Positions 23,045 to 60,591 of a stretch of DNA of 64,000 nucleotides are shown piece after piece. This DNA comes from Burkholderiales bacterium (GTDB lineage Bacteria; Pseudomonadota; Gammaproteobacteria; Burkholderiales; Burkholderiaceae_D), in the NCBI GenBank assembly GCA_038254545.1, contig JBBSGB010000010.1, positions 28,726 through 92,725 on the forward strand. Direction: 5' to 3'. The position numbers and the translations under genes are program-made. The notes beneath the pieces were generated by a model, which did not search any database, had not been told where the DNA came from, and saw only the letters and a list, made by a program, of their open reading frames with translations. Each line of letters opens with the position of its first letter. Position 1 is the first letter of the stretch.

Positions 23045-26000
23045 TCAATCGAACGAGAACGTATAGAACACATCCACCGCGCTCTCGGTTCCGGTCTGCA
23101 CCTGCAGGTCCACGCGCTGGTAGATGTTGTAGCGAATCTTGAGCAACGTCGCGGCTTTCGTGAAGCCCTGCTCGAAGGTCACGCGCAGGCGCGACGAGAT
23201 CTGCTTGCCGATGGTCAGGAGGCCGCCCCGATCGCCGCCTAATCCCGACACGCCGATCTCGTCCACGCCGAGCGTCGCAGCGATGCGCGACTGTATTCCG
23301 ACCGAATCGGATGAACCCAGCAAGCTCGCCGCCGCGGTCGTGAGCAAACCGAAGTCCGACTTGCTCGATCCCGACAAGCCGTGGCCCAGCACCAGCCACG
23401 ACAGTTTCTCGGTGTCTGGAACACTTGGGTTCGACGTGAGGCGTGCCTGCGGCGCGAGTGCGGTGCCACTGATCTGCACGCCGGCTTCGACCGCGAGGTT
23501 CTTGCGGACCGCATGGATGTCGAGCGCGGGGTTGTCGATCGGTCCCGAGAATGTCAGGTTGCCGCGGTCTATCGTCAGTCGCTGACCGTAGGCTTCGTAG
23601 GTCCCTTCACGTACCGCGACGGTGCCGATCGCGCGCAGATCGGTGCCCACGCCCGCGATGCGGATCACGCCGCCGAGCTTGCCGTCGAATCCTGAACCCT
23701 TGACCTTGAAGTCGTCGCCCATATCGAACTTCACTTCGAAGCGCACCGGCACGCTCTTGGCAGGCACGTCCTCGTCCGCCTTTTCCCGACCCACGATCAC
23801 GATGTCGTCGGAGAGGATCGGGCCGCGGCGCTCGGCGAGCTGCAGCGATCCGCGGTCGGCCTTGAGGTCCGCGGTCAGTTCGATCCCCGCCGTGCCGAAG
23901 CGTGCCGTGCCCGTTCCCGAGACGACCATGGTGCGATCGGTGCGCGCAATCGCTTCGAACTTGTCGAGCTTGACGGCGAGCGAACCCGACACCTTGCGAT
24001 CGGCCAGGCGCAGGTCACCGTTCGCGTTCAAGTGCCCGTTGCCCGCCGCGAGAGTCGCCTCCTTGAGGATGACGCGATCGCCGTCGAAGTCCATGTCGAG
24101 GTGGCCGTCGCGGAAGTTGATGCCCTGATCGGGCCAGCGCACGCCCACCGCATCGCCACTTGCATGGCCCGCGAGTAGCGGATGCGCGACCGTGCCGTGT
24201 CCGGTCACCGCCACCTGCAATCGACCGTAGAGATCGAGGCCGGGTCGTCCCGACAGGCGCGCGAGCCAGCGCAGATCGGGGATGTCGATGTCGCTCTTCA
24301 ATGCGAGCGGCGCATCGCCGGCCAGACCCCATTGCCCATCGCGCTTCGACAGGCGCGTATCGATCGCCGCTTCGATGCGACCGAGGCCGCGACCCGCAGC
24401 CGAGACCTGCGCGGATACGCGATTGGCGACGATGGTGGCCGACACGTCGATCTTGTCCGGTTCGACGTTGAATCTCGGCTCGGTCAGGAACTGGATGTTG
24501 CCCGACTCGCGAAACAGCTTCACGCTGCCGTCGATGGCGTCGCCGATGCGCAGGTCCCAACGCCCTCCGAACTTGAGCGAGGTCGCGACCTGGCGCGAAA
24601 AATCGCGCGAGAAAGTCCCCACGATCGCGAGCGGAAACCCGGTCGCGCTACCGGCGGTGACGATCTGTCCGTCGCTGTAGGTGAGTCGCTGAAGATCGAC
24701 CTGCCCTTCGTTGAACTTGAGAAGCGTCGCACCGACGTCGATCTCGTCCTTGCTCGCCAGCAAGGTCGCGGGCCTTGCGAGTGCAAACGGCACGCGGCCG
24801 CGACTGGCCAGCTTGTCGATGGTGCCGCGCCACGTACTGTTGCCTTCCAGTCCCCCATGCGCAGTGGTCGCGATGTCGAAGCGATCGCTTTTTGCGGTGA
24901 GCGTCAGCGTGTGCGCATCGCGCGTGCCTTTGACGTGTCCTTCGGCCGATTGGACTGCAGGCGTCGGACCGGGGCCGTCGCGAAATTCGGTCAGCGCGAT
25001 GTCGGCATCGAGAATGCCGCTGGGACCGGCAAGCAGTCGCCCCTGGCCTCTGAGCGTCTTGAGGCTGTAGTAGATCGTTGTCGCTGTCGCGGCCCTGGCG
25101 GCGGCCTTTGTATCAGTCTTGTCGTCGGCGCCTTTGGTTGTCGCCACAGTTGTCGCTGCCGGTGCCGCGGCGGTCTTCGCCACGTTAACCGACGCACTTG
25201 CGATCGACTTGCTGACCCGCAGGCCGTCGCCGGCGATCGTGAAGTCGATCGCGGGTTCGTCGAACGTGCCTCCCAGGAATCCTTGTCCCTTCAAAGAACC
25301 GCTGACGCCCGCGCCCAGGTCCGCAAGTCGTGGCGCATCGACGTTCCATTTCAGGCGATCCTGCGGTCGACCGAAGTCTCCCTGCGCATCGATACGATTC
25401 GCGCCGAACGCGAGAGCGATGTTCGCATTCGCGATCTGGCGAATCGCGACGGCGGGTCCTTCCTTCAGTCGCGCACCAGCCCTGTCCGCGATCGCACCCT
25501 CGACCGTGCCGACCACCGTACCCGCCACGGGCCTCTCCATCACGCGGCTCGGTTCGATGCGAAGGTCGGCGGCCACGCGAAAGACTTGTGGATTGCGCGC
25601 GGTCGCCGGCGCGCCCATCGTGCCCGCAAGCTTGAACGCCGCATTGAGCTCGGCCTTGGGAAAGTCACCGAAGTCGCGCGGGTTCAGATGGGCGACCTCG
25701 CCTTTCAGATCGAAGGGACGGCTCTTCGCGAGATCGACCGTGCCCGATGCCGCGACGCGACTGGCGCCGAGCACCACGCGCGCTTCTGCGATGCGAATCT
25801 CCTGGCCTTCCAACTCGCCGCGCAGCTTCACGCTGCGACCCGCATCGGCAAGCGTGGTGTCGATGTGAATCACGCCCTCGCGACGGCTGATTGCGAGCGG
25901 TCCCGCGAACTTCGACCCGATCAACTTGCCGTGAATCGCGCGCAGGTCGAGCGCGCGAACTACGCCATCGAACGAGGGCGTGCCGCCGTTCGCAAACACA

Positions 26001-27184
26001 TAGCTGCCCTTTCCGCTCACGTGCCCGGCCGCGCCGAGGTCGGCGACGATGCGCGAGAAGACCAGCGACAGCGAACCGCCGGTGAGGTCCGCGTTCAATG
26101 CAGCGACGGGGATGTGATCGCGATCGATGCGGCCGGGCGCGCCATTGACGACGCGCAGCGTTCCCCGGAATGGATAGAGCCCTGCACCTGCGCCAGGCGC
26201 CGGATTCGACAAGGGAGCATCGAGCGGGACGAGGTTCGCATCGACCGCGATGTCGGCTTCGGGCAGATCGGTCTTCCATCGCTTCGGTGAAATGCCTGCG
26301 ACATGCAGCATCGCGTCGGCGATCGGCTGCTCGTGAAACGGCAATACGTGCGCGGTCGCATGGCCCGCGAGCGGCTGGTCTTTCGGATCCGAAAGCGAGA
26401 AGTCCGAGGACAACTGGAGGTCGGCGAGCTTGCCCGCGACGGCGAGCGGCGCGCGATACGGTACATCGAAGGCCTTGCCTTCGGCAAGCAGGCGAGCATC
26501 GATTGCAAACGGCTTGGTCGCCGCGACCGACGCCGTTCCCGAAGCCGTTCCCCACGGGCTCTTCAAGGCCACGCTCTCGACGATCCAGCGCTTGCGTCCG
26601 TTCTCGAAGGCGTAGCGTCCGCGCAGGTCGGCATCGGTCAACGACGTCATCGCTTCCTTCTGCACGATATCGATGGCATCGAGATGCAGCGCAGTGATTC
26701 GCAGCGTGTCGATGCGCATCGCCGCGGGCAGCTCGAGCGTGTCGGGTTCCTTGGTCGGCTCGTCGGACTTGCCGATGATCGCGATGGTGAGCTTCTTTGC
26801 GCGCGCATCGTCGATCGTGAAGCGTCGCGCAAAAGGCTCCAAGGCATAACGCAATGAGCCCTTCTCGATCGTGATCACCTGTGTCTCGGTGCGATACACG
26901 AGGCGGTCGAACGCGACGCGGTCGTAGATCGATCCGGTCACGCCTTCGATGGTCAATTGTCCGTGTAGCGCCTTCTCGGCCTCGACCACGATGCGCTGCA
27001 GGGTTGCCTCGCGCCCGAGCAGCCAAGCGCCGATCGCGATCAGGAGAATCAGCAGACCGAACAGGCCGGCAACCGACCACGCCGCAGCGCGTGCGATGCG
27101 GCGCGCGCGCGAGCGCGGCATCGTGATCGGTACATCCGTCGGCGCATTCGTCCCCTGCTTCGACGGATCGTCGGGTTCGTTCAA
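23045..27184 (-). CDS. tamB: Translocation and assembly module protein TamB (DUF490/AsmA-like)
   Basis: Has an N-terminal anchor helix (AAWSVAGLFGLLILLIAIGAWLLG), a long beta-rich body, and a C-terminal DUF490 block (LTFSGPIDNPALDIHAVRK...LSWLVLGH...TGTESAVDVFYTFSFD). The start is TTG 27182-27184, overlapping the tamA stop, or ATG 27119-27121 (MPRSRARRIARAAAW...). Confidence 0.85.
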   Translation of the reverse strand: MNEPDDPSKQGTNAPTDVPITMPRSRARRIARAAAWSVAGLFGLLILLIAIGAWLLGREATLQRIVVEAEKALHGQLTIEGVTGSIYDRVAFDRLVYRTETQVITIEKGSLRYALEPFARRFTIDDARAKKLTIAIIGKSDEPTKEPDTLELPAAMRIDTLRITALHLDAIDIVQKEAMTSLTDADLRGRYAFENGRKRWIVESVALKSPWGTASGTASVAATKPFAIDARLLAEGKAFDVPYRAPLAVAGKLADLQLSSDFSLSDPKDQPLAGHATAHVLPFHEQPIADAMLHVAGISPKRWKTDLPEADIAVDANLVPLDAPLSNPAPGAGAGLYPFRGTLRVVNGAPGRIDRDHIPVAALNADLTGGSLSLVFSRIVADLGAAGHVSGKGSYVFANGGTPSFDGVVRALDLRAIHGKLIGSKFAGPLAISRREGVIHIDTTLADAGRSVKLRGELEGQEIRIAEARVVLGASRVAASGTVDLAKSRPFDLKGEVAHLNPRDFGDFPKAELNAAFKLAGTMGAPATARNPQVFRVAADLRIEPSRVMERPVAGTVVGTVEGAIADRAGARLKEGPAVAIRQIANANIALAFGANRIDAQGDFGRPQDRLKWNVDAPRLADLGAGVSGSLKGQGFLGGTFDEPAIDFTIAGDGLRVSKSIASASVNVAKTAAAPAATTVATTKGADDKTDTKAAARAATATTIYYSLKTLRGQGRLLAGPSGILDADIALTEFRDGPGPTPAVQSAEGHVKGTRDAHTLTLTAKSDRFDIATTAHGGLEGNSTWRGTIDKLASRGRVPFALARPATLLASKDEIDVGATLLKFNEGQVDLQRLTYSDGQIVTAGSATGFPLAIVGTFSRDFSRQVATSLKFGGRWDLRIGDAIDGSVKLFRESGNIQFLTEPRFNVEPDKIDVSATIVANRVSAQVSAAGRGLGRIEAAIDTRLSKRDGQWGLAGDAPLALKSDIDIPDLRWLARLSGRPGLDLYGRLQVAVTGHGTVAHPLLAGHASGDAVGVRWPDQGINFRDGHLDMDFDGDRVILKEATLAAGNGHLNANGDLRLADRKVSGSLAVKLDKFEAIARTDRTMVVSGTGTARFGTAGIELTADLKADRGSLQLAERRGPILSDDIVIVGREKADEDVPAKSVPVRFEVKFDMGDDFKVKGSGFDGKLGGVIRIAGVGTDLRAIGTVAVREGTYEAYGQRLTIDRGNLTFSGPIDNPALDIHAVRKNLAVEAGVQISGTALAPQARLTSNPSVPDTEKLSWLVLGHGLSGSSKSDFGLLTTAAASLLGSSDSVGIQSRIAATLGVDEIGVSGLGGDRGGLLTIGKQISSRLRVTFEQGFTKAATLLKIRYNIYQRVDLQVQTGTESAVDVFYTFSFD

Positions 27185-29130
27185 AACGACACCCCAAGCG
27201 AGAAATGAACACGCGTCGAACCGTTCTGCACGCCGTGCGCGACGTCGAAATCGAGCGTGCCGACCGGACTGCGCCAGCGTGCGCCGACGCCGTAGCCTAC
27301 GACCGGCTTCAAGTCGGAGAAGCGGTTGCCCGCATTTCCTGCGTCGACGAAAAGCGCGACGCCATAGTTCGGATAGCGCGGCCCGAGCCAGTGAATGCCT
27401 TCGATCGTACCGGTTGCGAGATAGCGTCCGCCGACGATCGCATCGACCTGTTGGACACCGAGACTTTGATATCCATAGCCCCGCACCGAACCATCACCGC
27501 CCGCGCGAAACAGCAGGGCAGACGGCAGGGTCTCGGTGGTCTTGCCCGCGACCACGCCGAGTTCGCCGCGCACGATCAGCGTGTTGTCGGTGCCGATCGG
27601 CTGGTAGCGAATCGCCTTGCCGTAGATGCGGCTGTACGGCTCACCGGTCTTCAACCGAACGCCCGCGCCGACCTGTCCGCTCGCGATGTAGCCGATGGTG
27701 GGCGTGAGCAGGTTGTCGGTACGGCGAAACGTCACGCCGTAGCTCGCACCGAGCGTTTGCGTCGACGTCTGCGGGATGCTGGACACGTCCTTCTGCTCGT
27801 ACAGATAATCGATCGAGGTAAAGCGTTCGGTGGCCTCGGGACCCCAGGCGCGCTTGGCCGAAAGGCCGGCGCCGCGCGTGACTTCGCCCTGCACGTCTTC
27901 GCGCTTGGCGAAGGACGAAATCGAGTACCGACTTCCAGCCTGGGTCGTCGGGAAGATCAGGTCGGCACCCAGCGCCTGTTTCAGACGATCGACCGCGAGC
28001 GTGGTGCGCAGTTGCTTGGCTCCGCCGAGAAAGCCGATGAAGTTGTAGCCCAGCGAAGCGCGCGGTCCCGCGTTGGTCGAGAGGCCGAGACCCACCGACA
28101 ATTGCTTCGACTTGTTTTCCTCGACGACTACGCGCAGAGGCAGCGTGACTTCGCGCGGCAGCGGTGTGGGCGGTGGGATGGACGATGGCGCGGACGATGG
28201 CGCGGACGACGGCGCGGCACTCGGTGCAGCCTCTGCGTTCGACCCGTCCGCGGTCGCGGCGGGTGCGTCCGTGCCGTCGGTCACCGGTTGCACGAACGGC
28301 GAGCGCGGATCGGTGCCGGGGTCGGCGGCGGCTTCGATGCTGACTTCGACGCGCGAGAAATAGCCGCTGTCATTCAGGCGCCGCTGGAAATCGAATATCT
28401 TTTCCTGCGAATAGAGTTCGCCCAGGCCGATCGGATCCAGATTGCGAACCGTCTCGGGTGGGTAGCGCTTCAGGCCGGTGGTCTGCAGTGGCCCAAATCG
28501 CACCGCCGGGCCGCTGGCGATCACCACGATGAGCTTCGCCTTGGAGCTGCGCACATCGACCTCGGCTTCGCTGCGCGTGATGGTCGCGAACGGGTAGGTG
28601 CGGATCAAGAGCCCTTGCAGCAGGCGCCGCTTGTTCGCTTCCCATTCTCCTTGTCGGAAGACGTCGCCCGATTGAAGCGTCCATCGCTCTCGCAGCGCGT
28701 CGACGTCGGGAGGTGTGTTCGTAGGCGCTTCCTTGATCGGACCGACGAATTGAAGGTCGATTGCCCCAACGGTCGTGATGTCGCCGGGTTCGATCCGGTA
28801 GCGCGCGATCCAGCGGTCGCCGCTCTGTTCGAGTTCGGCCGTGACGGTCGGCGCGTAGTAGCCTTCGGTCGCGATCAGGCGTTCGATCTCGTCCTTTCCC
28901 TGATCGAAGAGTCGCCGCAATTGATCGGCATCGATGCGTCCGCGCCGGCCGTCGGCATCGCGCCAGCGAATCAGGCTGAGGTTGCTGTTGACCAGCGACT
29001 TGAGGTTGCCCGGCGCTTCGACCACGACTTCATAGCGCGCTTCCTCGGCGTTCGCGCAATTGGCGGTGCAGAGCAGCGCCACAAACGCGCATGCGACGAG
29101 AGGCGGCGCCCACGCGGAACCCGGTCGCAT
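27181..29130 (-). CDS. tamA: Omp85-family outer-membrane protein TamA
   Basis: Has a signal peptide (MRPGSAWAPPLVACAFVALLCTANCANA), POTRA-like repeats, and a surface-antigen barrel ending in ...VHFSLGVSF (terminal Phe). I chose ATG 29128-29130. TTG 29143-29145 would overlap the upstream stop. Confidence 0.85.
   Translation of the reverse strand: MRPGSAWAPPLVACAFVALLCTANCANAEEARYEVVVEAPGNLKSLVNSNLSLIRWRDADGRRGRIDADQLRRLFDQGKDEIERLIATEGYYAPTVTAELEQSGDRWIARYRIEPGDITTVGAIDLQFVGPIKEAPTNTPPDVDALRERWTLQSGDVFRQGEWEANKRRLLQGLLIRTYPFATITRSEAEVDVRSSKAKLIVVIASGPAVRFGPLQTTGLKRYPPETVRNLDPIGLGELYSQEKIFDFQRRLNDSGYFSRVEVSIEAAADPGTDPRSPFVQPVTDGTDAPAATADGSNAEAAPSAAPSSAPSSAPSSIPPPTPLPREVTLPLRVVVEENKSKQLSVGLGLSTNAGPRASLGYNFIGFLGGAKQLRTTLAVDRLKQALGADLIFPTTQAGSRYSISSFAKREDVQGEVTRGAGLSAKRAWGPEATERFTSIDYLYEQKDVSSIPQTSTQTLGASYGVTFRRTDNLLTPTIGYIASGQVGAGVRLKTGEPYSRIYGKAIRYQPIGTDNTLIVRGELGVVAGKTTETLPSALLFRAGGDGSVRGYGYQSLGVQQVDAIVGGRYLATGTIEGIHWLGPRYPNYGVALFVDAGNAGNRFSDLKPVVGYGVGARWRSPVGTLDFDVAHGVQNGSTRVHFSLGVSF
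28181..28216. repeat. 3 x 12-nt tandem repeat inside tamA (encodes APSSAPSSAPSS)
   Basis: gacgatggcgcg / gacgatggcgcg / gacgacggcgcg on the plus strand. It lies in a Pro/Ala/Ser-rich linker (…APSAAPSSAPSSAPSSIPPPTPLP…). Confidence 0.8.
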
Positions 29131-29141
29131 CGCGCGCGCGA

Positions 29142-32100
29142 TCAAGCCTTCGCGCGGATCGCGCCCACGTTCGCGCCGATGTTCGGATCTGCGTTCGCCC
29201 CGAAGTTCGCGCCTTCGTTCATCCCCACGCTCGCGCCTACATTCAATACCGCCGCCATTTCGACCGAGTGAAGATCACCGGTCTCTTCGATGCCGACCGG
29301 TCGAACGTTCCTGCGTGGCGCATAGGCCGAGATCAGCGCGCATGCGAGCGACGAGAGATAAGGGATAGCCTGCGTGGCAAGGATGCCGACCCACAACAGG
29401 CTTTCGTATTGCCTCGGCATCAAGGCCAGCACGCTGCCGATGGCGAGAATGATCGCGAACGCCATCAGCGCTTCTTCCCGCACCGCGCTCAGCCACGCGA
29501 ACGCGCTCTTCTTCTTGCCGGTCTGCCAGCTCTTGGGCGTGACGACGAACGTACCCTGCTTCTGGATCAGGCCCGCCAGGATCCCGCGCGCGATTGAGTG
29601 CGACAACGCCATCGATGCGACCGATGCGCCAAATACGTCGCGCCATCCGCAAGGCACCCGCGCGCGATAGAGCGACGGGCCGAACCATGCCTTCAAGACG
29701 AAGAAGCCCAGTACCGGAATCACGAACAGGTCGAGCGGCAAGCTGAAGTTCTCGGGATTGAGCAGCATGCCGACAGTCCACGCGAGCGAGGCCAGCGTGA
29801 AGAACAGATGCAGCGCATCGGCAAACCACGAGAACCAGCCGGTGAGGAAGTGGAAGCGCTGTCCCGCGGTGAGTCCGCGTCGCTTGACGATGGGCTTGCC
29901 CTCGCGCGCGGAATCCTTTCGTGCCGCATCCTGGCGACCCAACAACCAGTTCCAGCGCCGCTTCAAGATCTGCATCGCCCCGAAAGCCCAGCGAAAACGC
30001 TGCGACTTGTAGCCCGCGAAGTTCGAAGGCGTGAGCCCGCGGCCGAGCACCTCGTCGATGTAGCGCGTCTCCCAGCCCGCGTTCATCAGGCGCAGACCCA
30101 ATTCGGCGTCTTCGCAGATGCACCACTCGGACCACCCTCCGGTCTCGACCAGCGCGTTCTTCTTCACCAGCGTCATCGTGCCGTGTTGGATGATCGCGTC
30201 GCGCTCGTTGCGGTGGTGCATGCCGATTCGAAAGAAGCCGTCGTATTCCCAGCTGGTCATGCGCTGGAAGGCGTTGTGCTGCCAGTCGCGATGGGCTTGC
30301 GGGCATTGCACGACGGCCACGCGCGGCGCTTCGAAATGCGACACCGTGAGCTTGAGCCAATCGTGATTGACGACATAGTCGGCATCGACCACGCCCACGA
30401 TCGCCGCGCGGCGATCGGTCTCTTCGAGCGCGAAGTTGAGTGCGCCCGCCTTGAAGCCCGGCCAGTTGTCGAGGTGGAAGAAGCGAAAGCGCGGACGCGA
30501 CGATGCTGACCGCGCTGGACGGTCGTGCTCGCCGGCCCGTTCTTGCGATTGCTCATTGACATGCTCGTTCAAACGCGCGACATAGCGCTCGACCGGCCTC
30601 CACACGTCTTCGCTCTTGGTGTTGTTGTCGATCACCAGCACTTCGAAGTTGCGATAGTCCAGGCGCGCAAGGCTCGCAAGCGTCTGGATCACCATCTCGG
30701 GCGGCTCGTTGTGGCAGGGCAGATGGATCGATACGAACGGCTCCACGGCGTCGAGCGCGGGACGCTCGGGCCTGAAGTGGCGCTGCCAGCGGCTCTGCCA
30801 CACCACTTCGGTGAACTCGAACGCGTTGGCCAGCAGGATCATCAACATCGCCGCCAACGCAGGCAGCAGCAGGACCAGCATCGCCCAGTCGAGCGTGTTC
30901 AGGTAGAACTCGAACGGCAAGGTGGTCAACCACACCACCAGCGTCATCGCCGCCTGGATCACGAGCCCGAAGAACAACCGGCCCGGCAAGCGAAAACGCG
31001 CGAACGCGATGCAGAACGCGACGATGGGAATGAGCGCGAGCAACGATGCCATCGTGGCCTTGCGCGGCCACGACGGGTCTGGAACCACCGGGCCCGTGAA
31101 CGAGAACTTCGGTTCGCGATCCGAGTTGAAGATGCCCCAGTAGGCGCCGGTGCGGCCTTCGCTGGTGCGCTTCCAGGGCTGGTCGATCGCTTCCATCAGG
31201 TAGTAGTCGAGCCCCTTCTGCTTGGCGATCGGCAGGAACTCGCGGATGAACTGGGCTTCGTCGGCGACCGACGCGGTCGAATAGACGATCGGGTCGTTGG
31301 GCTTTTCGAGGTTCTTGATCGGCACGCGACTGCCGCCGCTCGGCCAGCCGACTTCGCCGATGACGATCTTCTTGTTCGGATATTCGCGCCGCATCTCCTC
31401 GTAGCGGCGCATCACGTGCGTGACCGCGTTGGCGCGCGGAACGCCTTCCCAATACGGCAGCAGGTGGACGGTGATGAAGTCCACATGTTTCGCGAGCTCA
31501 TGCATCTGCTTCGCGCGTGCACGGTCGGTGGTTAGCCAGATGTCCCACGATTCGGCAGTCGAAACCGGCACGCGCGCGCGGCGCTTGATGATGTCGATAT
31601 AACTCATCAGCTCCTTGGGCGTGAGGTCGCCGCGCAGCAGGGTTTCATTGCCGACCATGACGCGATCGACGTTGTTGTTGTCGCGCATCAACTCGATCAG
31701 CGATTTGATCTGGAGATTGTTCTCCTTCTTGTCGGTCGACAGCCACGCGCCGGCGGTGACCGTCATGCCGTACTCGCGCGCGAGCGCGGGGATGGCTGCA
31801 GCATCGACAGCGTTATAAGTGCGCAGCCGGTCCGTGTACTTCGACAGCATGCGCACGTCGGCGGCCAGCTCCTGCTCGCTTGGATACGTGGGCGTCGGAG
31901 GTTGCGGCGACTGGTCGCGCTGGAATCCGTTAAACGCGAAGCCGCCCACCTGGCCTTGCCACGGCGGCGCTTCGGGCGCGCGATTGAGCCACGACCAGAA
32001 CGACCAGTTGGTCGCTGCGATGACTGCGGCAACCAGGATCGCCGAAACCACCATCCCGATCGAGACGCGGCGGCCGTTTCCGTTCTTTCGGTTGGCGCCG

Positions 32101-32153
32101 CGATCGGCCGGGGTCGGTCGACTGGATCGGCCGAAGGGTTGAAGGATGCTCAA
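29142..32153 (-). CDS. ndvB: NdvB-like bifunctional beta-1,3-glucan synthase: N-terminal GH17 transglycosylase/glucanase domain, a TM region, and a GT2 processive glycosyltransferase
   Basis: The GH17 catalytic glutamates sit in the canonical contexts VMVGNETLL and IVIGEVGWPSGG. About 4 TM helices follow. The GT2 motifs are VLVIDNNT, VVDADYVV (DxD), ICEDAELG and QRFRW (QxxRW). The start is TTG 32151-32153. The next ATG, at 32054, would remove the basic cytoplasmic N-terminus. Confidence 0.8.
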   Translation of the reverse strand: MSILQPFGRSSRPTPADRGANRKNGNGRRVSIGMVVSAILVAAVIAATNWSFWSWLNRAPEAPPWQGQVGGFAFNGFQRDQSPQPPTPTYPSEQELAADVRMLSKYTDRLRTYNAVDAAAIPALAREYGMTVTAGAWLSTDKKENNLQIKSLIELMRDNNNVDRVMVGNETLLRGDLTPKELMSYIDIIKRRARVPVSTAESWDIWLTTDRARAKQMHELAKHVDFITVHLLPYWEGVPRANAVTHVMRRYEEMRREYPNKKIVIGEVGWPSGGSRVPIKNLEKPNDPIVYSTASVADEAQFIREFLPIAKQKGLDYYLMEAIDQPWKRTSEGRTGAYWGIFNSDREPKFSFTGPVVPDPSWPRKATMASLLALIPIVAFCIAFARFRLPGRLFFGLVIQAAMTLVVWLTTLPFEFYLNTLDWAMLVLLLPALAAMLMILLANAFEFTEVVWQSRWQRHFRPERPALDAVEPFVSIHLPCHNEPPEMVIQTLASLARLDYRNFEVLVIDNNTKSEDVWRPVERYVARLNEHVNEQSQERAGEHDRPARSASSRPRFRFFHLDNWPGFKAGALNFALEETDRRAAIVGVVDADYVVNHDWLKLTVSHFEAPRVAVVQCPQAHRDWQHNAFQRMTSWEYDGFFRIGMHHRNERDAIIQHGTMTLVKKNALVETGGWSEWCICEDAELGLRLMNAGWETRYIDEVLGRGLTPSNFAGYKSQRFRWAFGAMQILKRRWNWLLGRQDAARKDSAREGKPIVKRRGLTAGQRFHFLTGWFSWFADALHLFFTLASLAWTVGMLLNPENFSLPLDLFVIPVLGFFVLKAWFGPSLYRARVPCGWRDVFGASVASMALSHSIARGILAGLIQKQGTFVVTPKSWQTGKKKSAFAWLSAVREEALMAFAIILAIGSVLALMPRQYESLLWVGILATQAIPYLSSLACALISAYAPRRNVRPVGIEETGDLHSVEMAAVLNVGASVGMNEGANFGANADPNIGANVGAIRAKA

Positions 32154-39041: not shown

Positions 39042-41171
39042 CTACGCTGCGTTGAGCGCTTCCATCAGTTTCCGGCGCGAATTGAGGAGTCCGTTGGCTT
39101 CCATTTCCCGCAGGTGCTGCTGCGTCGACGGCGGTTTCGCGGACGAGCCGATGTGCCGCTCCAGGATCTTCAGAAACGGTCGCATCATCCGTGGATCGAA
39201 ATGGATGCCGCTCTCGCACATCATCTGCTCGACCGCCAGTCGGTGGGGCCACGCGCGCTTGTAGGGCCGCTCGTTGGTCAACGCGTCATAGACGTCGGCG
39301 AAAGCGCAGATCCGCGCTGCCAGCGGGATGTTGTCACCCGATGCATTCGGATAGCCCTCGCCGTTCCACCATGCGTGGTGATACTTGGCGATCACCGCGG
39401 CCATTTGCAGCGTCGAATCTTCGGATCCTTCGAGCAGTTGGGCGCCGACCTCGGTATGCGCGCGCATCGCCGTCACTTCGCTCGCGTCCAGCGGACCGGG
39501 CTTGAGCAGGATCATCTCGTTGACGGCGATCTTCCCGATGTCGTGCAGCCGCGAAGCATGCTCGATGCGCACGCAATACTCGCGGTCCATGCCCAGTTCG
39601 GCGGCCAGCAACCCGGCCAGACGGCCGACGCGAAAGCAATGCTGACCGGTCTGGTCATCGAAAAACTCCGCGGCGAGCGCCCAGTTCTCGGCGACGTCGT
39701 AGGCAGCGGTGCGCATCGCAGCCTTCAGCGAATCGATCCGCAGCTTGGCCAGATCGCCGTGAATGGCGGTCAATTCGTCGTGCTTGCGGACGCGCCCGCG
39801 CACTGCGCCGACCGACGAGACCGGTGACGACATGATGGCGATCGCTTCCGCGCTCGCATCGGTGGCGGCGACTTCGTCGTCGAGCCAGCGACGGACGCCG
39901 GCGAACGGATCGAACACCGCGGACGCCTTGTCGTCTTCCCTTGACTTGCGAGCGGCCTCACGATCGCTCACCTGCCGGTAGAACTTCGCGTGCTTGACGT
40001 TAGTGGTGTATTCGACAAGTTCCTTGGCCGGATTGTTTCCCGCAGTGTGCTCGACCAGTTCCCGCGCGTACTTCATGCCGGTCCTGGCCGTCTGCGTCAC
40101 GATCCGCTTGAGGGCGTCGACCCCGTCAACGGCGTGATCGTGGCGCTCGAGCTTGTCGATCTCCCCGGTCAATGTGCGGCTATGCACGTCCATCAACGCA
40201 CGAAGGACGTGGTCGTGATGCATGCGGGTCTGCCTGGTCCTGTGATAGAGCTCGAAGAGTTGCTTGCGCGCCCGCGCTTCACGGTCGTGGTCGCGGCTTG
40301 CCCAATCGCAGAGGGCTTCGGCGATGTCGAGCAGGATCTCGACTGGGGGATTGCTTACTTTCGCGGTGCGCACCTTGGCCGCCGCAATCAGAAGTTCTGC
40401 CGTCTCGTTGTCCTGTTTGAATAGGAGGTACATCGCGCGGCAATGCTCGAAGTTCGTCTTCAGGACGATGTCTGCAAGGGGATTGTCGTCGTACATCTCC
40501 GAGCCGATGCGCAGGTAACGAAGCGCGGCTTCGTCGTCGCGCAGGCGATGGGCGCTGAACAGGCCGTTGATGGCATTGATGAAAGCCAGGTAGCGCCCGC
40601 GGGGCGAACTGGCCTCATAGGCAAGCGCCTTGTCGGCGACTTCCATCGCTTCTTGATAGAGGCCCATCTCCTTCAAAAGCGCACCGGCATTTGTCATTGC
40701 TAGGCAAACCAGCACCGGATCGCCAATCTCATTTGAAAGCTTCAACGAACTCTCGAGAGATTCGCAGGCTTCTTCGAAGCACGCGCCATCGAGATATGCC
40801 GTTCCCAATGCATTGGCCGCAAGCCGCTCGAGATTGATCAATCCATTTTGTTTCGCAAGATTCTTCGCAATCTGACCACGAGGAATTCCATCAAAGCTGT
40901 AGCCGATCTGCTTGTAGTAATAGCAGGCATCGCCCAGCACTTTGATCCGGGCTTCGAGATTCAGATTCCTTTCCACCTGCATCAGGATAGTCGTCAGGCG
41001 ATCGACCATCGCGCGATGCTGAGCGTTGAAACCACTGATCGCAGCGACGGTGCGGTCTACTAGAACACCTAGGACGCGCGTAGCAATCTCGACGTCGATG
41101 CTGTCGATTACCCGTACGGCATCGGGCACGCTTCCTTGCAGGAGAGCGTCTACGGATATCACCTGGTTCAT
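39042..41171 (-). CDS. TPR-like repeat sensor protein with a C-terminal HD-GYP domain (predicted c-di-GMP phosphodiesterase)
   Basis: 709 aa. Residues ~70-300 are helical TPR-like repeats (LGDACYYYKQIGY..., ALGTAYLDGACFEEACESLESSLKL, NAGALLKEMGLYQEAMEVADKALAY). The C-terminal HD-GYP region reads HCFRVGRL...ASRLHDIGKI...KYHHAWWNGEGYP...FADVYDALTNERPYK. G+C is visibly lower than in the neighbours. Confidence 0.85.
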   Translation of the reverse strand: MNQVISVDALLQGSVPDAVRVIDSIDVEIATRVLGVLVDRTVAAISGFNAQHRAMVDRLTTILMQVERNLNLEARIKVLGDACYYYKQIGYSFDGIPRGQIAKNLAKQNGLINLERLAANALGTAYLDGACFEEACESLESSLKLSNEIGDPVLVCLAMTNAGALLKEMGLYQEAMEVADKALAYEASSPRGRYLAFINAINGLFSAHRLRDDEAALRYLRIGSEMYDDNPLADIVLKTNFEHCRAMYLLFKQDNETAELLIAAAKVRTAKVSNPPVEILLDIAEALCDWASRDHDREARARKQLFELYHRTRQTRMHHDHVLRALMDVHSRTLTGEIDKLERHDHAVDGVDALKRIVTQTARTGMKYARELVEHTAGNNPAKELVEYTTNVKHAKFYRQVSDREAARKSREDDKASAVFDPFAGVRRWLDDEVAATDASAEAIAIMSSPVSSVGAVRGRVRKHDELTAIHGDLAKLRIDSLKAAMRTAAYDVAENWALAAEFFDDQTGQHCFRVGRLAGLLAAELGMDREYCVRIEHASRLHDIGKIAVNEMILLKPGPLDASEVTAMRAHTEVGAQLLEGSEDSTLQMAAVIAKYHHAWWNGEGYPNASGDNIPLAARICAFADVYDALTNERPYKRAWPHRLAVEQMMCESGIHFDPRMMRPFLKILERHIGSSAKPPSTQQHLREMEANGLLNSRRKLMEALNAA

Positions 41172-41277
41172 TGACGGGCTTGCTTTCGTTGAACGGACTA
41201 CGCTACCTTGGCAACATCTGACGCAAATCGTCAGTACCAGACAAAACCCGGCCTAAACTTTTTCTCGGAGCACCATC

Positions 41278-41403
41278 ATGATTGCAACCACCCAAACGCA
41301 AGAAGTCGTCGCAGTTGCTACCGAGAAGCAGGTCCAGTACGTCTTCGTCGAAGACGCGGCGCTGATTCATGTCGGCGGCGGTTCGGCCACTGGTCATTTC
41401 TAA
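41278..41403 (+). CDS. Candidate 41-aa small protein or peptide precursor (MIATTQTQEVVAVATEKQVQYVFVEDAALIHVGGGSATGHF)
   Basis: ATG 41278 is preceded by GGAG (41267-70) at a 7-nt spacing. TAA is at 41401, and a strong intrinsic terminator begins 28 nt downstream. It is too short for the ORF track. A fully antisense 64-codon frame (41203-41397, minus strand) cannot be excluded on composition alone. Confidence 0.35.
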   Translation: MIATTQTQEVVAVATEKQVQYVFVEDAALIHVGGGSATGHF

Positions 41404-41430
41404 ATCCTGATACAAACAAGATTCGCGCCA

Positions 41431-41480
41431 CGCCAGCAATTCGCCCCGCAAAACGGGGCGATTGCTGGCGTTGTTGTTTT
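41431..41480 (+). terminator. Rho-independent terminator (plus-strand orientation)
   Basis: cgccagcaattcgccccg - caaaa - cggggcgattgctggcg forms a 17-bp stem with one bulged T. It is followed by ttgttgtttt. The T tract is on the plus strand only. Confidence 0.8.
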
Positions 41481-41757
41481 GTGGCCAAGGTTTTGATCTA
41501 GCCTCCCAAATTAATTCACTCGGGATACGCCTAGATCGATGGCACATCCCTAATCAATAACTAGATGATCGATCGATGGCGAAATAGGAATTAACCCATT
41601 CGAACGGGACGTGCTATTCGTAGCAACGAATAATCGACCCCGTGTTCGGCAGCTATGCTGCAGCCTCCTGTGGGTGAATTCCGGCGGAGGACTACGTCTG
41701 ATAGCTCGCGCCCTGCCACGATGCGGACAACTAAAATGACGCATCCTCACGAGCCGA

Positions 41758-42336
41758 ATGAATACCGATCCACTCCCTTCGAGCACGACCGCATCGACCT
41801 GCCGTTACGGCAAGCCGGCGATCGCGCTGCACTGGATCATTGCGGTACTGATCTTCGGGATGATCGCGCTGGGCTGGTACATGATGAGCATCGAGAAGGA
41901 GCCGGGTGCGGATGCCCTGTTCGACCTGCACAAGTCCTTCGGGTTGACGGTATTCGGACTGATGGTGCTGCGCATCCTGTGGCGCGCGGGGGATCGACCC
42001 GAAGGTCTGCCGGACTCGGTTCCCGCCTGGCAGGCCAGGCTGTCGGCGCTGATCCACTGGGCGCTCTATGCATGCATGATCGTGATGCCGGTCACCGGCT
42101 ATCTGGGTGCCTCGCATCAGAAGGAATCGCCGAAGCTGTTCGGCCTCGACCTGCCGCATTGGGCCACGCCCGACCACGATACCGCCGAAGCGTTCTTCAC
42201 GATCCATTCGTTCACGACCTGGGTGCTCGTCGTGCTGATCGCCTTGCACGTCCTCGCGGGATTCAAGCACCTGCTGATGGATCGCGATAGGGTTTTCCAG
42301 CGGATGTGGATGGAACGCCGCGATCAGCGGACTTGA
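41758..42336 (+). CDS. cybB: Cytochrome b561 family protein (CybB-like)
   Basis: 192 aa with four TM helices and the conserved His pattern ([31 protein letters not shown]). Confidence 0.85.
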
Positions 42337-42626
42337 GAGTCCGTCCTGGCGCTCGAAGGCTCGACGATCTGCACAAACACTTCGCCTTCCTTCAACATCC
42401 GGAGTTCATAACGCGCGCGTTCCTCGACCGCGCCGGCGCCTTCCTTCAAATCCTTCACTTCGGCCGCGAGCTTGGCGTTGCGCGCTTCGAGATCGGTGTT
42501 GGTTTTCTTCTGCACCTGAAGTTGCCGCTCGGCGTCGCGTACCTTCATCCACCCGCCCTTGCCGAGCCACAAGGGGAACTGGATCGCGATCAGCAACGCG
42601 ACGATCGCGATCGGGATCAGGCGCAT
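42324..42626 (-). CDS. ftsB: Cell division protein FtsB
   Basis: [26 protein letters not shown]... is followed by a coiled coil. The position downstream of eno is conserved. I chose ATG 42624-42626. Confidence 0.86.
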
Positions 42627-59503: not shown

Positions 59504-60591
59504 GCCAACTCCTTTGCAGCCGCATCTTCGATGAAGACCCGCGCCCGGCGTGCAGCCAGATGAACGTTCGATCCCACGGTCACGTCGAGTTCATCGAAAC
59601 GCTCACGCGGCAACTCGACTTCGAGGAACCCATGCTCCGATCCATCGTGCGCGAGGTCGATCATTTCGAGTCGCACCGTCGAGCCGAGTTTCACCATGTG
59701 TTCGACGCGCGCGGAGAACGCCGCGTGCGCCCGATCATCGACGATTTCCAGATCGTGCGGGCGGATATACGCGGTGCCGTTTGCATCGCTTACGGCGGCG
59801 TGTTCGGGCGCCGCGAGGCGCGAGCGGCCGATCGTCGCGACACCGCGGTCGACGCGGCTCCGGACGCGATTGGCGTGCCCGAGAAAGCCGTACACGAACG
59901 GCGTGGCGGGATGATCGTAGACCTCGTCGGGGACGCCGATCTGCTCGATCTTTCCATGATCGAACACCACCACCCGGTCCGACACTTCCAGCGCTTCCTC
60001 CTGATCGTGCGTAACGAACACGCTGGTCAGCTGGATCTCGTCGTGAAGACGCCGCAGCCAGCGGCGCAGGTCCTTTCTCACCTTCGCGTCGAGCGCACCG
60101 AAGGGTTCATCGAGCAGCAGCACCTTGGGTTCGATCGCCAGCGCGCGCGCGAGCGCGATGCGCTGGCGTTGGCCGCCCGAGAGCTGGTGCGGATAACGAT
60201 CGCCGAGCCAGTCGAGCTGCACCAGGTTGAGCAGGCCGTGGACCTTCTCGCGAATCACGGCCTCGCTCGGGCGCTCCTTCTTCGACTTCACGCGCAAGCC
60301 GAACGCGACGTTCTCGAACACCGTCATGTGCCGGAACAGCGCGTAGTGCTGGAACACGAAGCCGACCGCACGCTCGCGCACGTCCTTGTCGGTGGCGTCC
60401 TCGGCGTCGAGAAACACGCGGCCTTCGTCGGGCACTTCCAGGCCCGCAATGACGCGCAGGAGCGTGGTCTTGCCCGAGCCCGAGGGTCCGAGCAACGCGA
60501 CCAGTTCGCCGGGCGCTATCGTGAGGTCGACGTTCTCGAGCGCGACGAAATCGTTGAAGCGCTTCGAGACGTTTTCAATCTTGATGCTCAT
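59500..60591 (-). CDS. cysA: Sulfate/thiosulfate ABC transporter ATP-binding protein
   Basis: Walker [10 protein letters not shown], signature LSGGQRQR, Walker B LLLDEPF, and a C-terminal regulatory (TOBE-like) domain. 363 aa. Confidence 0.93.

Follow-up and report, generated by a model that had tools for sequence, protein, structure and literature searches.

The locus studied here raises a simple question: is a 41-codon open reading frame (ORF), which stands back to back with the gene of a TPR-HD-GYP protein, a gene in its own right, and what might its product do? The ORF lies at positions 41278 to 41403 of the plus strand in a 64,000-nt stretch of contig JBBSGB010000010.1 from a Burkholderiales bacterium; this whole stretch is called the window below, and positions are counted from its first letter. 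An earlier reading of the letters alone, referred to here as the original prediction, had proposed a self-contained transcription unit encoding a precursor with a double-glycine (GG) leader. It had further proposed that an ABC exporter with a C39 peptidase domain (PCAT) would cut the precursor, and that the TPR protein next door would sense the released hexapeptide and adjust the turnover of cyclic di-GMP (c-di-GMP). We find that the plus-strand gene is real and under purifying selection, that its pairing with the TPR-HD-GYP gene is obligate, and that in a sister clade a PCAT is linked to the pair. Judging from these sequences, we give a probability of about 0.55 to the reading in which peptide and protein would form a signal-receptor pair, the precursor being exported by a PCAT and its tail switching the HD-GYP domain.

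A 41-codon gene under purifying selection

The gene consists of 41 codons plus a TAA stop and encodes MIATTQTQEVVAVATEKQVQYVFVEDAALIHVGGGSATGHF. It is designated as a precursor peptide gene by its homologues, by the proportions of nonsynonymous (pN) and synonymous (pS) differences between them, and by the ORF listing. Alignments of homologues divide the product, MIATTQTQEVVAVATEKQVQYVFVEDAALIHVGGG/SATGHF (the slash marks the predicted cut), into an acidic leader of the double-glycine type (codons 1 to 35, 41278-41382) and a core or tail (codons 36 to 41, 41383-41400), SATGHF, which tail statistics single out as the predicted mature hexapeptide. A GGAG ribosome-binding site is found at 41267-41270, 7 nt ahead of the ATG, and the same motif with the same spacing occurs in 11 of 12 aligned loci. 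The spacer between this ATG and the start of the HD-GYP gene is exactly 106 nt (41172-41277), and a recount of G+C at codon positions 1, 2 and 3 gave 28, 16 and 26 per 41 codons. Spacer, ribosome-binding site, ORF length and the hand-counted codon statistics are thereby all as the original prediction had described them. An identical 41-aa protein is annotated as a gene in an independent public assembly.

Relatives were collected by a scan for the HD-GYP protein in one genome per species, which yielded 11 full-length loci, from Burkholderiales/Betaproteobacteria metagenome bins. The original prediction had left two other readings of the locus, an antisense ORF and a cis-antisense small RNA (sRNA), and had called for a test of which strand is under purifying selection. 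The test was carried out on the 35 leader codons of 10 loci (45 pairs), using Nei-Gojobori proportions. Pairwise differences at plus-frame codon positions 1, 2 and 3 numbered 468, 454 and 804, and the columns that were invariant numbered 13, 8 and 2. In the sense frame, mean pN was 0.294 and mean pS 0.599, with pS larger than pN in 44 of 45 pairs; in the codon-aligned antisense frame the two values were practically equal (0.363 and 0.364), and pS exceeded pN in only 18 of the 45 pairs. The Gly codons of the GGG run also differ synonymously among loci. Selection is thus seen in the plus frame only.

The antisense ORF does exist (41203-41397, minus strand); it is codon-aligned with the gene, extends to 41547, and its frame is open in 9 of 10 loci. 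As a real gene it is rejected on pN/pS together with the codon-position pattern, and since only the sense frame is under purifying selection, we regard it as an artefact of the kind usually seen in the mirror frame of GC-rich genes.

Downstream of the stop codon, the original prediction had described a near-perfect 17-bp hairpin with a T tract at 41431-41480. The structure is present on the plus strand; its extent had to be corrected, to a stem of about 19 bp with one bulge at 41430-41471, followed by a T-rich tract (TGTTGTTTTGT) at 41472-41482. The terminator-like element as a whole, 41430-41482, is supported by its fold and by structural conservation, and it begins 27 nt past the stop codon. 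The 82-nt segment 41404-41485 folds with -41.3 kcal/mol (z = -5.3; none of 200 shuffles was as stable), and in this fold A-rich sequence farther upstream is paired with the T tract as well. A Rho-independent terminator consists of a GC-rich hairpin and, after it, a U tract on the transcribed strand, and both are present here; a strict consensus terminator scan did not call the hairpin 41430-41471. GC-rich stem-loops of unrelated sequence lie downstream of the ORF in 11 of 12 loci, most of them followed by a T-rich tract, which indicates that the monocistronic layout is conserved. With purifying selection acting on the frame, and with ribosome-binding site, start, stop and structural hairpin all kept, the self-contained coding unit proposed at the outset stands.

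Between the stop codon and the hairpin, the locus alignment revealed a conserved 15-nt motif of the 3' untranslated region (3'UTR), ACAAGATTCGCGCCA (41416-41430, plus strand). It occurs at the same position in L001 to L009, once only in the window, and its conservation exceeds that of the coding sequence: L001 and L004 have it in identical form, L004 with a peptide only 46% identical, and six further loci show one to four changes. Motif, hairpin and U tract together have the layout of a 3'UTR-derived sRNA (seed, hairpin, U tract).

This layout and the unusual conservation of the motif beside the terminator, like the openness of the antisense frame, are what can be said for a non-coding or other-strand reading. 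An Rfam E-value scan of 40500-42500 returned only chance matches (a trypanosome snoRNA, AgvB), on the minus strand and far below the gathering score, so that a cis-antisense sRNA of a known family is not retained as the primary reading. The 5' region is unstructured, its RNA fold being no more stable than shuffles (z = +0.8), and variation is highest at the third position of sense codons. If the 3' end did have a second function, this would add to the coding function rather than replace it.

The 106 nt of 41172-41277 form a divergent control region common to the peptide and HD-GYP genes, and their length is about 97 to 109 nt in most relatives. Locus alignment shows a conserved block on the plus strand, CTACGCTA (41198-41205), with variants in L101 and L103; its TAnnnT form makes it a possible -10 element, an assignment that is uncertain. 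No sigma-70 promoter emerged from a consensus scan of the region, nor was a convincing -35/-10 or sigma-54 promoter seen by eye. The perfect palindrome noted in the original prediction, CTGACGcaaatCGTCAG (CTGACG-N5-CGTCAG, 41218-41234), is present, and occurs once in the window. Its palindromy is kept in relatives with altered letters, for example TGACA..TGTCA in L006 and CTGATT..AATCAG in L008. Because the RNA of this 5' region is not unusually stable, the palindrome is more likely a DNA site; it is a candidate operator, probably for a dimeric regulator.

A rare peptide family in an obligate two-gene cassette

A profile built from the 11 locus peptides was searched against 5.8 billion proteins, with clustering at 90% identity. 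It recovered 65 clusters of 39 to 42 aa, all unnamed; the exceptions in length are a few miscalled upstream starts and one stop-codon read-through. An exhaustive hidden Markov model search of 1.84 billion 50%-identity representatives found 37 members. We conclude that the peptide family is real but rare. Neither Pfam nor NCBIfam holds a model for it, and no Pfam domain was found in the 65 clusters. Counted in all, there are roughly 90 peptide clusters, none of them named.

All members have the same leader-plus-tail layout, namely MIADIQTQE, a variable stretch, the pattern (V/I)QY-x-x-V-Q-D-x-(E/D)-L-x-x-V-G-G-G, and a tail of 5 to 7 residues. Among 59 aligned members M1, G34 and G35 are invariant, and Q6, T7, Q8, V24, L29, V32 and G33 are at least 90% conserved. 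Counted from a cut after G35, the window leader has V32 at -4, L29 at -7, D26 at -10, V24 at -12, Y21 at -15 and G34-G35 at -2/-1; V32 and L29 do not vary among the 11 genome loci, D26 is conserved, -15 is occupied by Y or F, and at -8 most members have E or D, the window having A. In the GG-leader consensus of Havarstein and Dirix, LSxxELxxIxGG, positions -4, -7, -12 and -15 are hydrophobic and a residue near -8 is acidic. In a few members G33 (-3) is replaced by A or S, and G34-G35 never is, as would be predicted from a cleavage site of the form V(-4)-x(-3)-G(-2)-G(-1). The double-glycine register that the original prediction had read from a single sequence has thus turned out to be the most conserved feature of the family; the leader is of this type, and a hydrophobic Sec signal is indeed absent.

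The tails behave quite differently from the leader. Among 65 peptides, 51 distinct tails were counted, and lengths of 5, 6 and 7 residues occur in 7, 43 and 14 cases. The tails are devoid of Lys and Arg, contain one Asp and one Glu overall, and end in F or Y in 55 of 64 cases. Some tails are retained as leaders diverge to 51% identity (SATGYF, and SHGCLF in six clusters); conversely, leaders 94 to 97% identical carry differing tails (IASVNY, SIVVNY and NAVALY in one set, STTTLF and TTSMHF in another). The tail is therefore constrained within lineages and replaced between them, which is the pattern of signal-specificity (pherotype) evolution, and not that of a neutral appendage.

The synteny of the gene was followed by tblastn. 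In every one of the 11 loci having upstream DNA, the peptide is encoded divergently upstream of the receptor gene, with an ATG, GGAG at equal spacing and the stop at the same place. Over a wider set, each of 16 loci with upstream DNA has the ORF intact and divergent, some 100 nt away from the gene of a TPR-HD-GYP homologue, at receptor identities down to 40%, which goes far beyond what chance would produce; this answers the search beside TPR-HD-GYP homologues that the original prediction had recommended. Receptors only 40 to 56% identical still have a divergent peptide gene, as in L101 (peptide end ...EFVGGG/DAVNGY), L103 (...HVGGG/TGLLDY) and L102, where it is an uncalled 27-codon ORF (...EVGGG/IDINGH). 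The flanking genes are unrelated. The window and its closest relatives have gcvP and cytochrome b561/ftsB on the two sides; L019 has a gene resembling that of N-acetylglutamate synthase and a TonB-like one, L020 has glutathione peroxidase and PilT-type ATPases, and L101 to L103 have other housekeeping genes. It follows that peptide and TPR-HD-GYP genes make up a two-gene cassette, and their pairing is obligate.

At least three metagenome bins appear to hold two cassettes, errors of binning being possible. In the JANXTA01 bin, L004 and L005 have the differing tails CTATHF and GASGVLF; in one Burkholderiaceae bin, P0027 and P0064 have TSIGHF and NALVNY; and in the JBBRRW01 bin (L002/L010), the second receptor copy ends at a contig edge, with its peptide beyond the contig. 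Two cassettes with different tails would fit parallel channels without cross-talk.

The partner protein and, in a sister clade, a linked exporter

The partner gene (39042-41171, minus strand, ATG at 41171-41169) encodes a soluble protein of 709 aa, for which a role as receptor and c-di-GMP phosphodiesterase is predicted from Pfam, NCBIfam, a match to PmGH (4mcw, E 3e-38) and an AlphaFold2 model. Pfam recognizes HD_5 (2e-24) and a weak TPR_12, and NCBIfam likewise HD/HD_5 (HD-GYP). The model, built with 89 homologues, has a pLDDT of 82, rising above 90 for aa 10 to 340, and places a disordered linker at about aa 380 to 460 before the HD-GYP domain. The N-terminal sensor (aa 1 to about 375; 40047-41171, minus strand) is an all-alpha TPR superhelix of about 8 repeats according to AlphaFold2, Foldseek and a PDB profile search. 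The best Foldseek matches of this part are the peptide-binding TPR of LGN/Pins and domain III of MalT; none of the top 50 matches of the partner is a protein of the RRNPP family (Rap-Phr, NprR-NprX, PlcR-PapR, PrgX, Rgg-SHP, ComR-XIP). In the PDB profile search LGN scored 1e-21, followed more weakly by RapF (3.5e-6), RapJ (5e-6) and NprR (7e-3). When the N-terminal 473 residues were used as query, 98 homologues were found, all with HD_5/HD except for one frameshifted copy. The protein has no transmembrane segment (the maximum mean over 19 residues on the Kyte-Doolittle scale is 1.41), and the partner is therefore taken to be cytoplasmic.

The HD-GYP domain (aa 465-709; 39045-39779, minus strand) is delimited by its invariant ligands and by the PmGH alignment. 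By Foldseek, the C-terminal part resembles the known HD-GYP structures of PmGH, PA4781 and DvhD, PmGH being 36% identical over the aligned part and reaching a profile score of 4e-51. H511, H543, D544, H572, H598, H599, D626 and G606-Y607-P608 are invariant in the 89 homologues, and the RPYK segment is invariant in the family. Where PmGH has HHERWDGTGYP and PETQNH, the window has HHAWWNGEGYP and DDQTGQH; the latter is at codons 505 to 511, and the former, at codons 598 to 608, corresponds to HHEWWNGAGYP in the family consensus, the change of D to N in the HHExxDGxGYP signature being family-wide. As modelled, the partner is a TPR fold joined to an HD-GYP domain with its catalytic residues intact, and hydrolysis of c-di-GMP is its predicted role. 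With a mean p-distance of 0.44 against 0.21, the TPR part evolves at about double the rate of the catalytic part.

In a long-read assembly (L107, 5001-7009) a frameshift or an error of assembly divides the receptor into two overlapping ORFs, one of 508 aa for the TPR part and one of 177 aa for the HD part; upstream of it, the peptide gene (39 aa) is intact. A tblastn search of the TPR domain against the PLSDB plasmids gave no match.

A metagenome scan with the back-translated patterns HH[EA]WWNG and ADVYDALT, which proved generic for HD-GYP, gathered 80 loci. A GG-peptide gene lies beside a TPR-HD-GYP gene in two of them, L022 and L023, and the others served as a negative control: in 490 kb around 78 generic HD-GYP genes, the leader-plus-short-tail pattern had a single, spurious match. 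In the 64-kb window the pattern matches once. L022 is a further variant of the peptide, LSLTELAQVGGG/MGSAALV.

L023 belongs to a sister clade with L104, L105 and L106, in which an HlyD adaptor, a PCAT, one to four tandem GG-peptide genes and a TPR-HD-GYP gene are clustered in this order (L023, 770-6533; L104, 4706-10630; L105, 4742-10386; L106, 4593-10400). A PCAT is thus linked to the peptide/TPR-HD-GYP pair in this clade. The exporter has 690 aa, with an N-terminal Peptidase_C39 domain (E 1e-34) and the catalytic Cys, His and Asp motifs QTEAAECGLACLAMI, HFVVL and DP, and the tandem peptide genes lie on the opposite strand. The peptides end in LLDNEVILIGGG/EAVGTTY (three copies), LLATEIMLIGGG/EAAGSDY (four copies), LLDSELILVGGG/EASICYFG (two copies) and LDDIELLFVGGG/DVVQMGG. 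The HD-GYP part of the partner is 39 to 49% identical to that of the window, and the TPR part 23 to 33%. Orthologues of this exporter, which carries the JGI label 'RaxB/CvaB/MchF', are common in Burkholderiales bins among the best 120 of 7840 matches, one of which is labelled Casimicrobium.

In a third clade (L012 to L016), a TPR-HD-GYP gene, with a product of about 590 aa and strong TPR matches, is in an operon with a gene for a 328-aa protein that has an N-terminal LuxR/GerE helix-turn-helix (HTH), and is followed by a convergent GG-peptide gene. The sites are L012, 2612-2755; L013, 2803-3021; L014, 1015-4092; L015, 2924-6010; and L016, 1550-1726. The peptides end in L(S/T/N)D(D/E)QLxLxGGG/(D/E)xxxCW, and all of the six-residue tails close with Cys-Trp (DGVACW, EGVVCW, EDMVCW, DDFICW, EEAVCW).

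Apart from the cassette, the window contains three consecutive very large ORFs on the minus strand at 23045-32153 (1379, 654 and 1003 aa), with G+C at third codon positions of coding type.

Rival readings and known systems

In the signal-receptor reading, the 41-codon gene would be the precursor of a short peptide signal whose product is the last six residues, SATGHF, and would be transcribed alone from the 106-nt divergent region, ending at the hairpin 41430-41482. A PCAT with an HlyD-type adaptor would cut after G35 and export the hexapeptide; for the window cassette this PCAT is presumably encoded elsewhere in the genome, as it is next door in the sister clade. Since the receptor is cytoplasmic, the exported peptide would have to come back into the cell, which is the route of RRNPP systems, unless it is recognized before processing, while it still forms the free C-terminus of the precursor. 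In either form it would bind to the adjacent protein on the concave side of its TPR superhelix, and binding would switch the HD-GYP domain and change c-di-GMP hydrolysis in a direction that is itself conjectural. Diversification of tail and TPR domain would then create private channels, or pherotypes. Cleavage, export, uptake and binding of the tail by the TPR domain are steps that we infer from sequence. The RRNPP-like logic of the original prediction fits in with a soluble TPR superhelix as receptor, a portable two-gene cassette and pherotype-like variation of the tail.

Several points weigh against this reading. Just as the original prediction had cautioned that no exporter lay in the window, no C39 domain, PCAT or HlyD adaptor was found in its 64 kb, where tblastn found no more than an ATPase domain, that of a CysA-like transporter (about 60382-60579); nor was a PCAT, adaptor or C39 domain found in the 223 kb of flanks of 22 PCAT-less loci. 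A cytoplasmic receptor requires an importer such as Opp or Dpp, which must be assumed. The first nine leader residues, MIADIQTQE, are conserved beyond what a PCAT leader needs, so that the ligand may be the leader itself, or the leader may serve another purpose as well. The likeness of the TPR domain to RRNPP receptors is generic (1e-21 for LGN against 3.5e-6 for RapF). Co-variation of tail and TPR domain, assessed by a partial Mantel test on 24 pairs, is weak, confounded by phylogeny and a hint only (partial r = 0.18, p = 0.02, with HD-GYP distance controlled; for the converse, tail against HD-GYP distance, r = 0.11, p = 0.10). All family members come from metagenome assemblies. The window, moreover, has HHA where the family has HHE, and Q507, family-wide, takes the place of the third-metal Glu of PmGH; catalytic competence is presumptive. 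These residues suggest a bimetallic site resembling the PA4781 type, whose substrate could be pGpG or another cyclic dinucleotide.

The rival that survives best, unlikely as we hold it to be, is that of an intracellular partner. The 41-aa product would not be exported in the PCAT-less clade; it would bind the TPR domain through its leader or its C-terminus and act as a stoichiometric modulator or anti-activator, and any PCAT present would do no more than titrate it by export or cleavage. This would account for the cytoplasmic location of the receptor, for the lack of an exporter near any window-type locus, and for the strong conservation of MIADIQTQE at the protein level, which recognition by a PCAT does not need. 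Precursor and mature peptide, moreover, have the same C-terminus, and TPR domains often clamp free C-termini, such as EEVD in the case of Hop and SKL in that of PEX5. What it explains poorly is that the PCAT recognition code, the V-x-G-G register with hydrophobic residues at -4, -7, -12 and -15, is equally strict in the PCAT-less clade. An adjacent exporter and up to four identical tandem peptide genes, as in the sister clade, suit a secreted bulk product, and a tail that is hypervariable yet conserved at the level of clades is more in keeping with specificity between cells than with a housekeeping partner.

A somewhat more doubtful possibility is that the peptide is exported for another job, as a tiny bacteriocin or microcin, a metal binder or a public good, and that the TPR-HD-GYP protein regulates its production or the lifestyle of the cell without being its receptor. 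GG leaders and PCATs are classically the machinery of bacteriocins and microcins (PMC12219008, PMC10233263), and in Synechococcus, GG peptides promote biofilm without a known TPR receptor (PMC4997328); the richness of the tails in His and Cys would also agree with such a role. Against this, 5 to 7 residues are far below the known class II microcins, and no immunity gene is conserved in the cassette, the flanks of which differ at every locus. The single invariant partner is a protein with a peptide-binding type of fold. No tail residue is conserved family-wide, which makes a fixed chemistry such as metal chelation unlikely.

Very improbable, to our mind, is a pathway for a peptide made by the ribosome and modified after translation (RiPP), in which the HD protein would modify the tail as a metalloenzyme and the TPR domain would recognize the leader. 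The analogy is with SmaX, an HD-domain enzyme that modifies a GG-leader RiPP precursor (PMC12186529). SmaX, however, is an atypical single-iron enzyme (HD_4/DUF6817), whereas the partner here is a canonical HD-GYP protein, 36% identical to PmGH, with di-metal ligands, GYP motif and RPYK segment all invariant; the tail offers no conserved residue as a modification site, and no second tailoring enzyme is conserved nearby. Least credible of all is a non-coding or other-strand reading, either as a cis-antisense or Hfq-type sRNA or with the antisense ORF 41203-41397 (minus strand) as the gene, given purifying selection in the sense frame and none in the antisense frame.

The signal-receptor reading would have some bearing on current views. 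The original prediction had called the combination undescribed, and full-text literature searches found no publication describing a GG-peptide/TPR-HD-GYP pairing; on the sequences, we would rate it a new combination of secretion, receptor and output, in a phylum that is new for intracellular-TPR peptide signalling. A wider claim, tentative and in our estimate just short of an even chance, is that this would be the first peptide quorum sensing with RRNPP logic outside Firmicutes. In that case a GG precursor would yield a 5-7-residue pheromone read by a TPR-HD-GYP protein, acting on c-di-GMP without kinase or transcription factor, in private Burkholderiales pherotypes, and with variants that have their own PCAT or a LuxR-type regulator. 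Peptide quorum sensing by intracellular receptors has been placed in Firmicutes, and small-molecule signals in Proteobacteria (PMC10075063). If the reading is true, a proteobacterial GG-leader hexapeptide with a TPR-enzyme receptor would break this division. To our knowledge, the ligands that control HD-GYP proteins are largely unknown; the cassette would supply a candidate ligand that is encoded by a gene and comes in natural variants of specificity, so that the gating of HD-GYP activity by a sensor domain could be tested directly. The variant pairs would also be a ready set of orthogonal peptide/receptor parts. The family is under-annotated, having neither names nor a Pfam or NCBIfam model.

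Among known systems, EbfG/PteB of Synechococcus and PatS/HetC of Nostoc are similar in that small GG-motif or short peptides are exported by PCATs in Gram-negative cells and control biofilm or differentiation (PMC4997328, PMC10986499). They have no adjacent TPR-HD-GYP receptor, and they belong to other peptide families and another phylum. RaxX-RaxB/RaxA/RaxC of Xanthomonas and the CvaC-CvaB microcins likewise involve Gram-negative GG peptides, a PCAT and an HlyD-type adaptor. RaxX, however, is sulfated, measures about 20 aa or more and is detected by plants through a receptor, class II microcins are toxins of 60 to 90 aa with immunity genes, and in neither case is there a coupled TPR or HD-GYP protein. 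In the DSF (diffusible signal factor)/Rpf system of Xanthomonas (RpfC-RpfG), a cell-cell signal leads to c-di-GMP degradation through an HD-GYP protein, as is proposed here; there the signal is a fatty acid, passed on by a membrane kinase and a phosphorelay to a REC-HD-GYP protein, whereas here a ribosomal peptide would act directly on the TPR-HD-GYP protein. Closer in the precursor are ComC/CSP-ComAB, BlpC and plantaricin A, which share the GG leader with hydrophobic residues at -4, -7, -12 and -15, an adjacent C39-peptidase ABC exporter (here in the sister clade) and pherotype variation in the mature part. Their pheromones, of 17 to 27 aa, are detected extracellularly by histidine kinases of the membrane; those of the present family would have 5 to 7 aa, and their sole conserved partner is a soluble TPR enzyme.

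RRNPP systems resemble the cassette in more respects. In both, a small propeptide gene stands beside the gene of a cytoplasmic TPR-type receptor, in a divergent arrangement that is also that of many rgg/shp pairs. As with PapR and SHP/XIP, the active part is, or here would be, the C-terminal 5 to 8 residues of a precursor some 40 aa long; tails diversify into pherotypes, with several cassettes per genome; and there are weak profile matches to the TPRs of RapF, RapJ and NprR. The differences concern the leader, which is of the double-glycine (PCAT) type here and a Sec signal or a PptAB substrate in RRNPP systems; the output, an HD-GYP domain instead of an HTH or a Rap phosphatase surface; the hosts, Betaproteobacteria instead of Firmicutes; and the TPR domain, which is much closer to generic TPRs (LGN, 1e-21). 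A survey describes peptide systems of the RRNPP type as a feature of Firmicutes (PMC10075063). Since export route, effector domain and phylum lie outside the definition and TPR homology is only generic, the cassette is not a member of RRNPP. By analogy, and not by membership, it would work like one, and the functional likeness is greatest with PlcR-PapR and Rgg-SHP.

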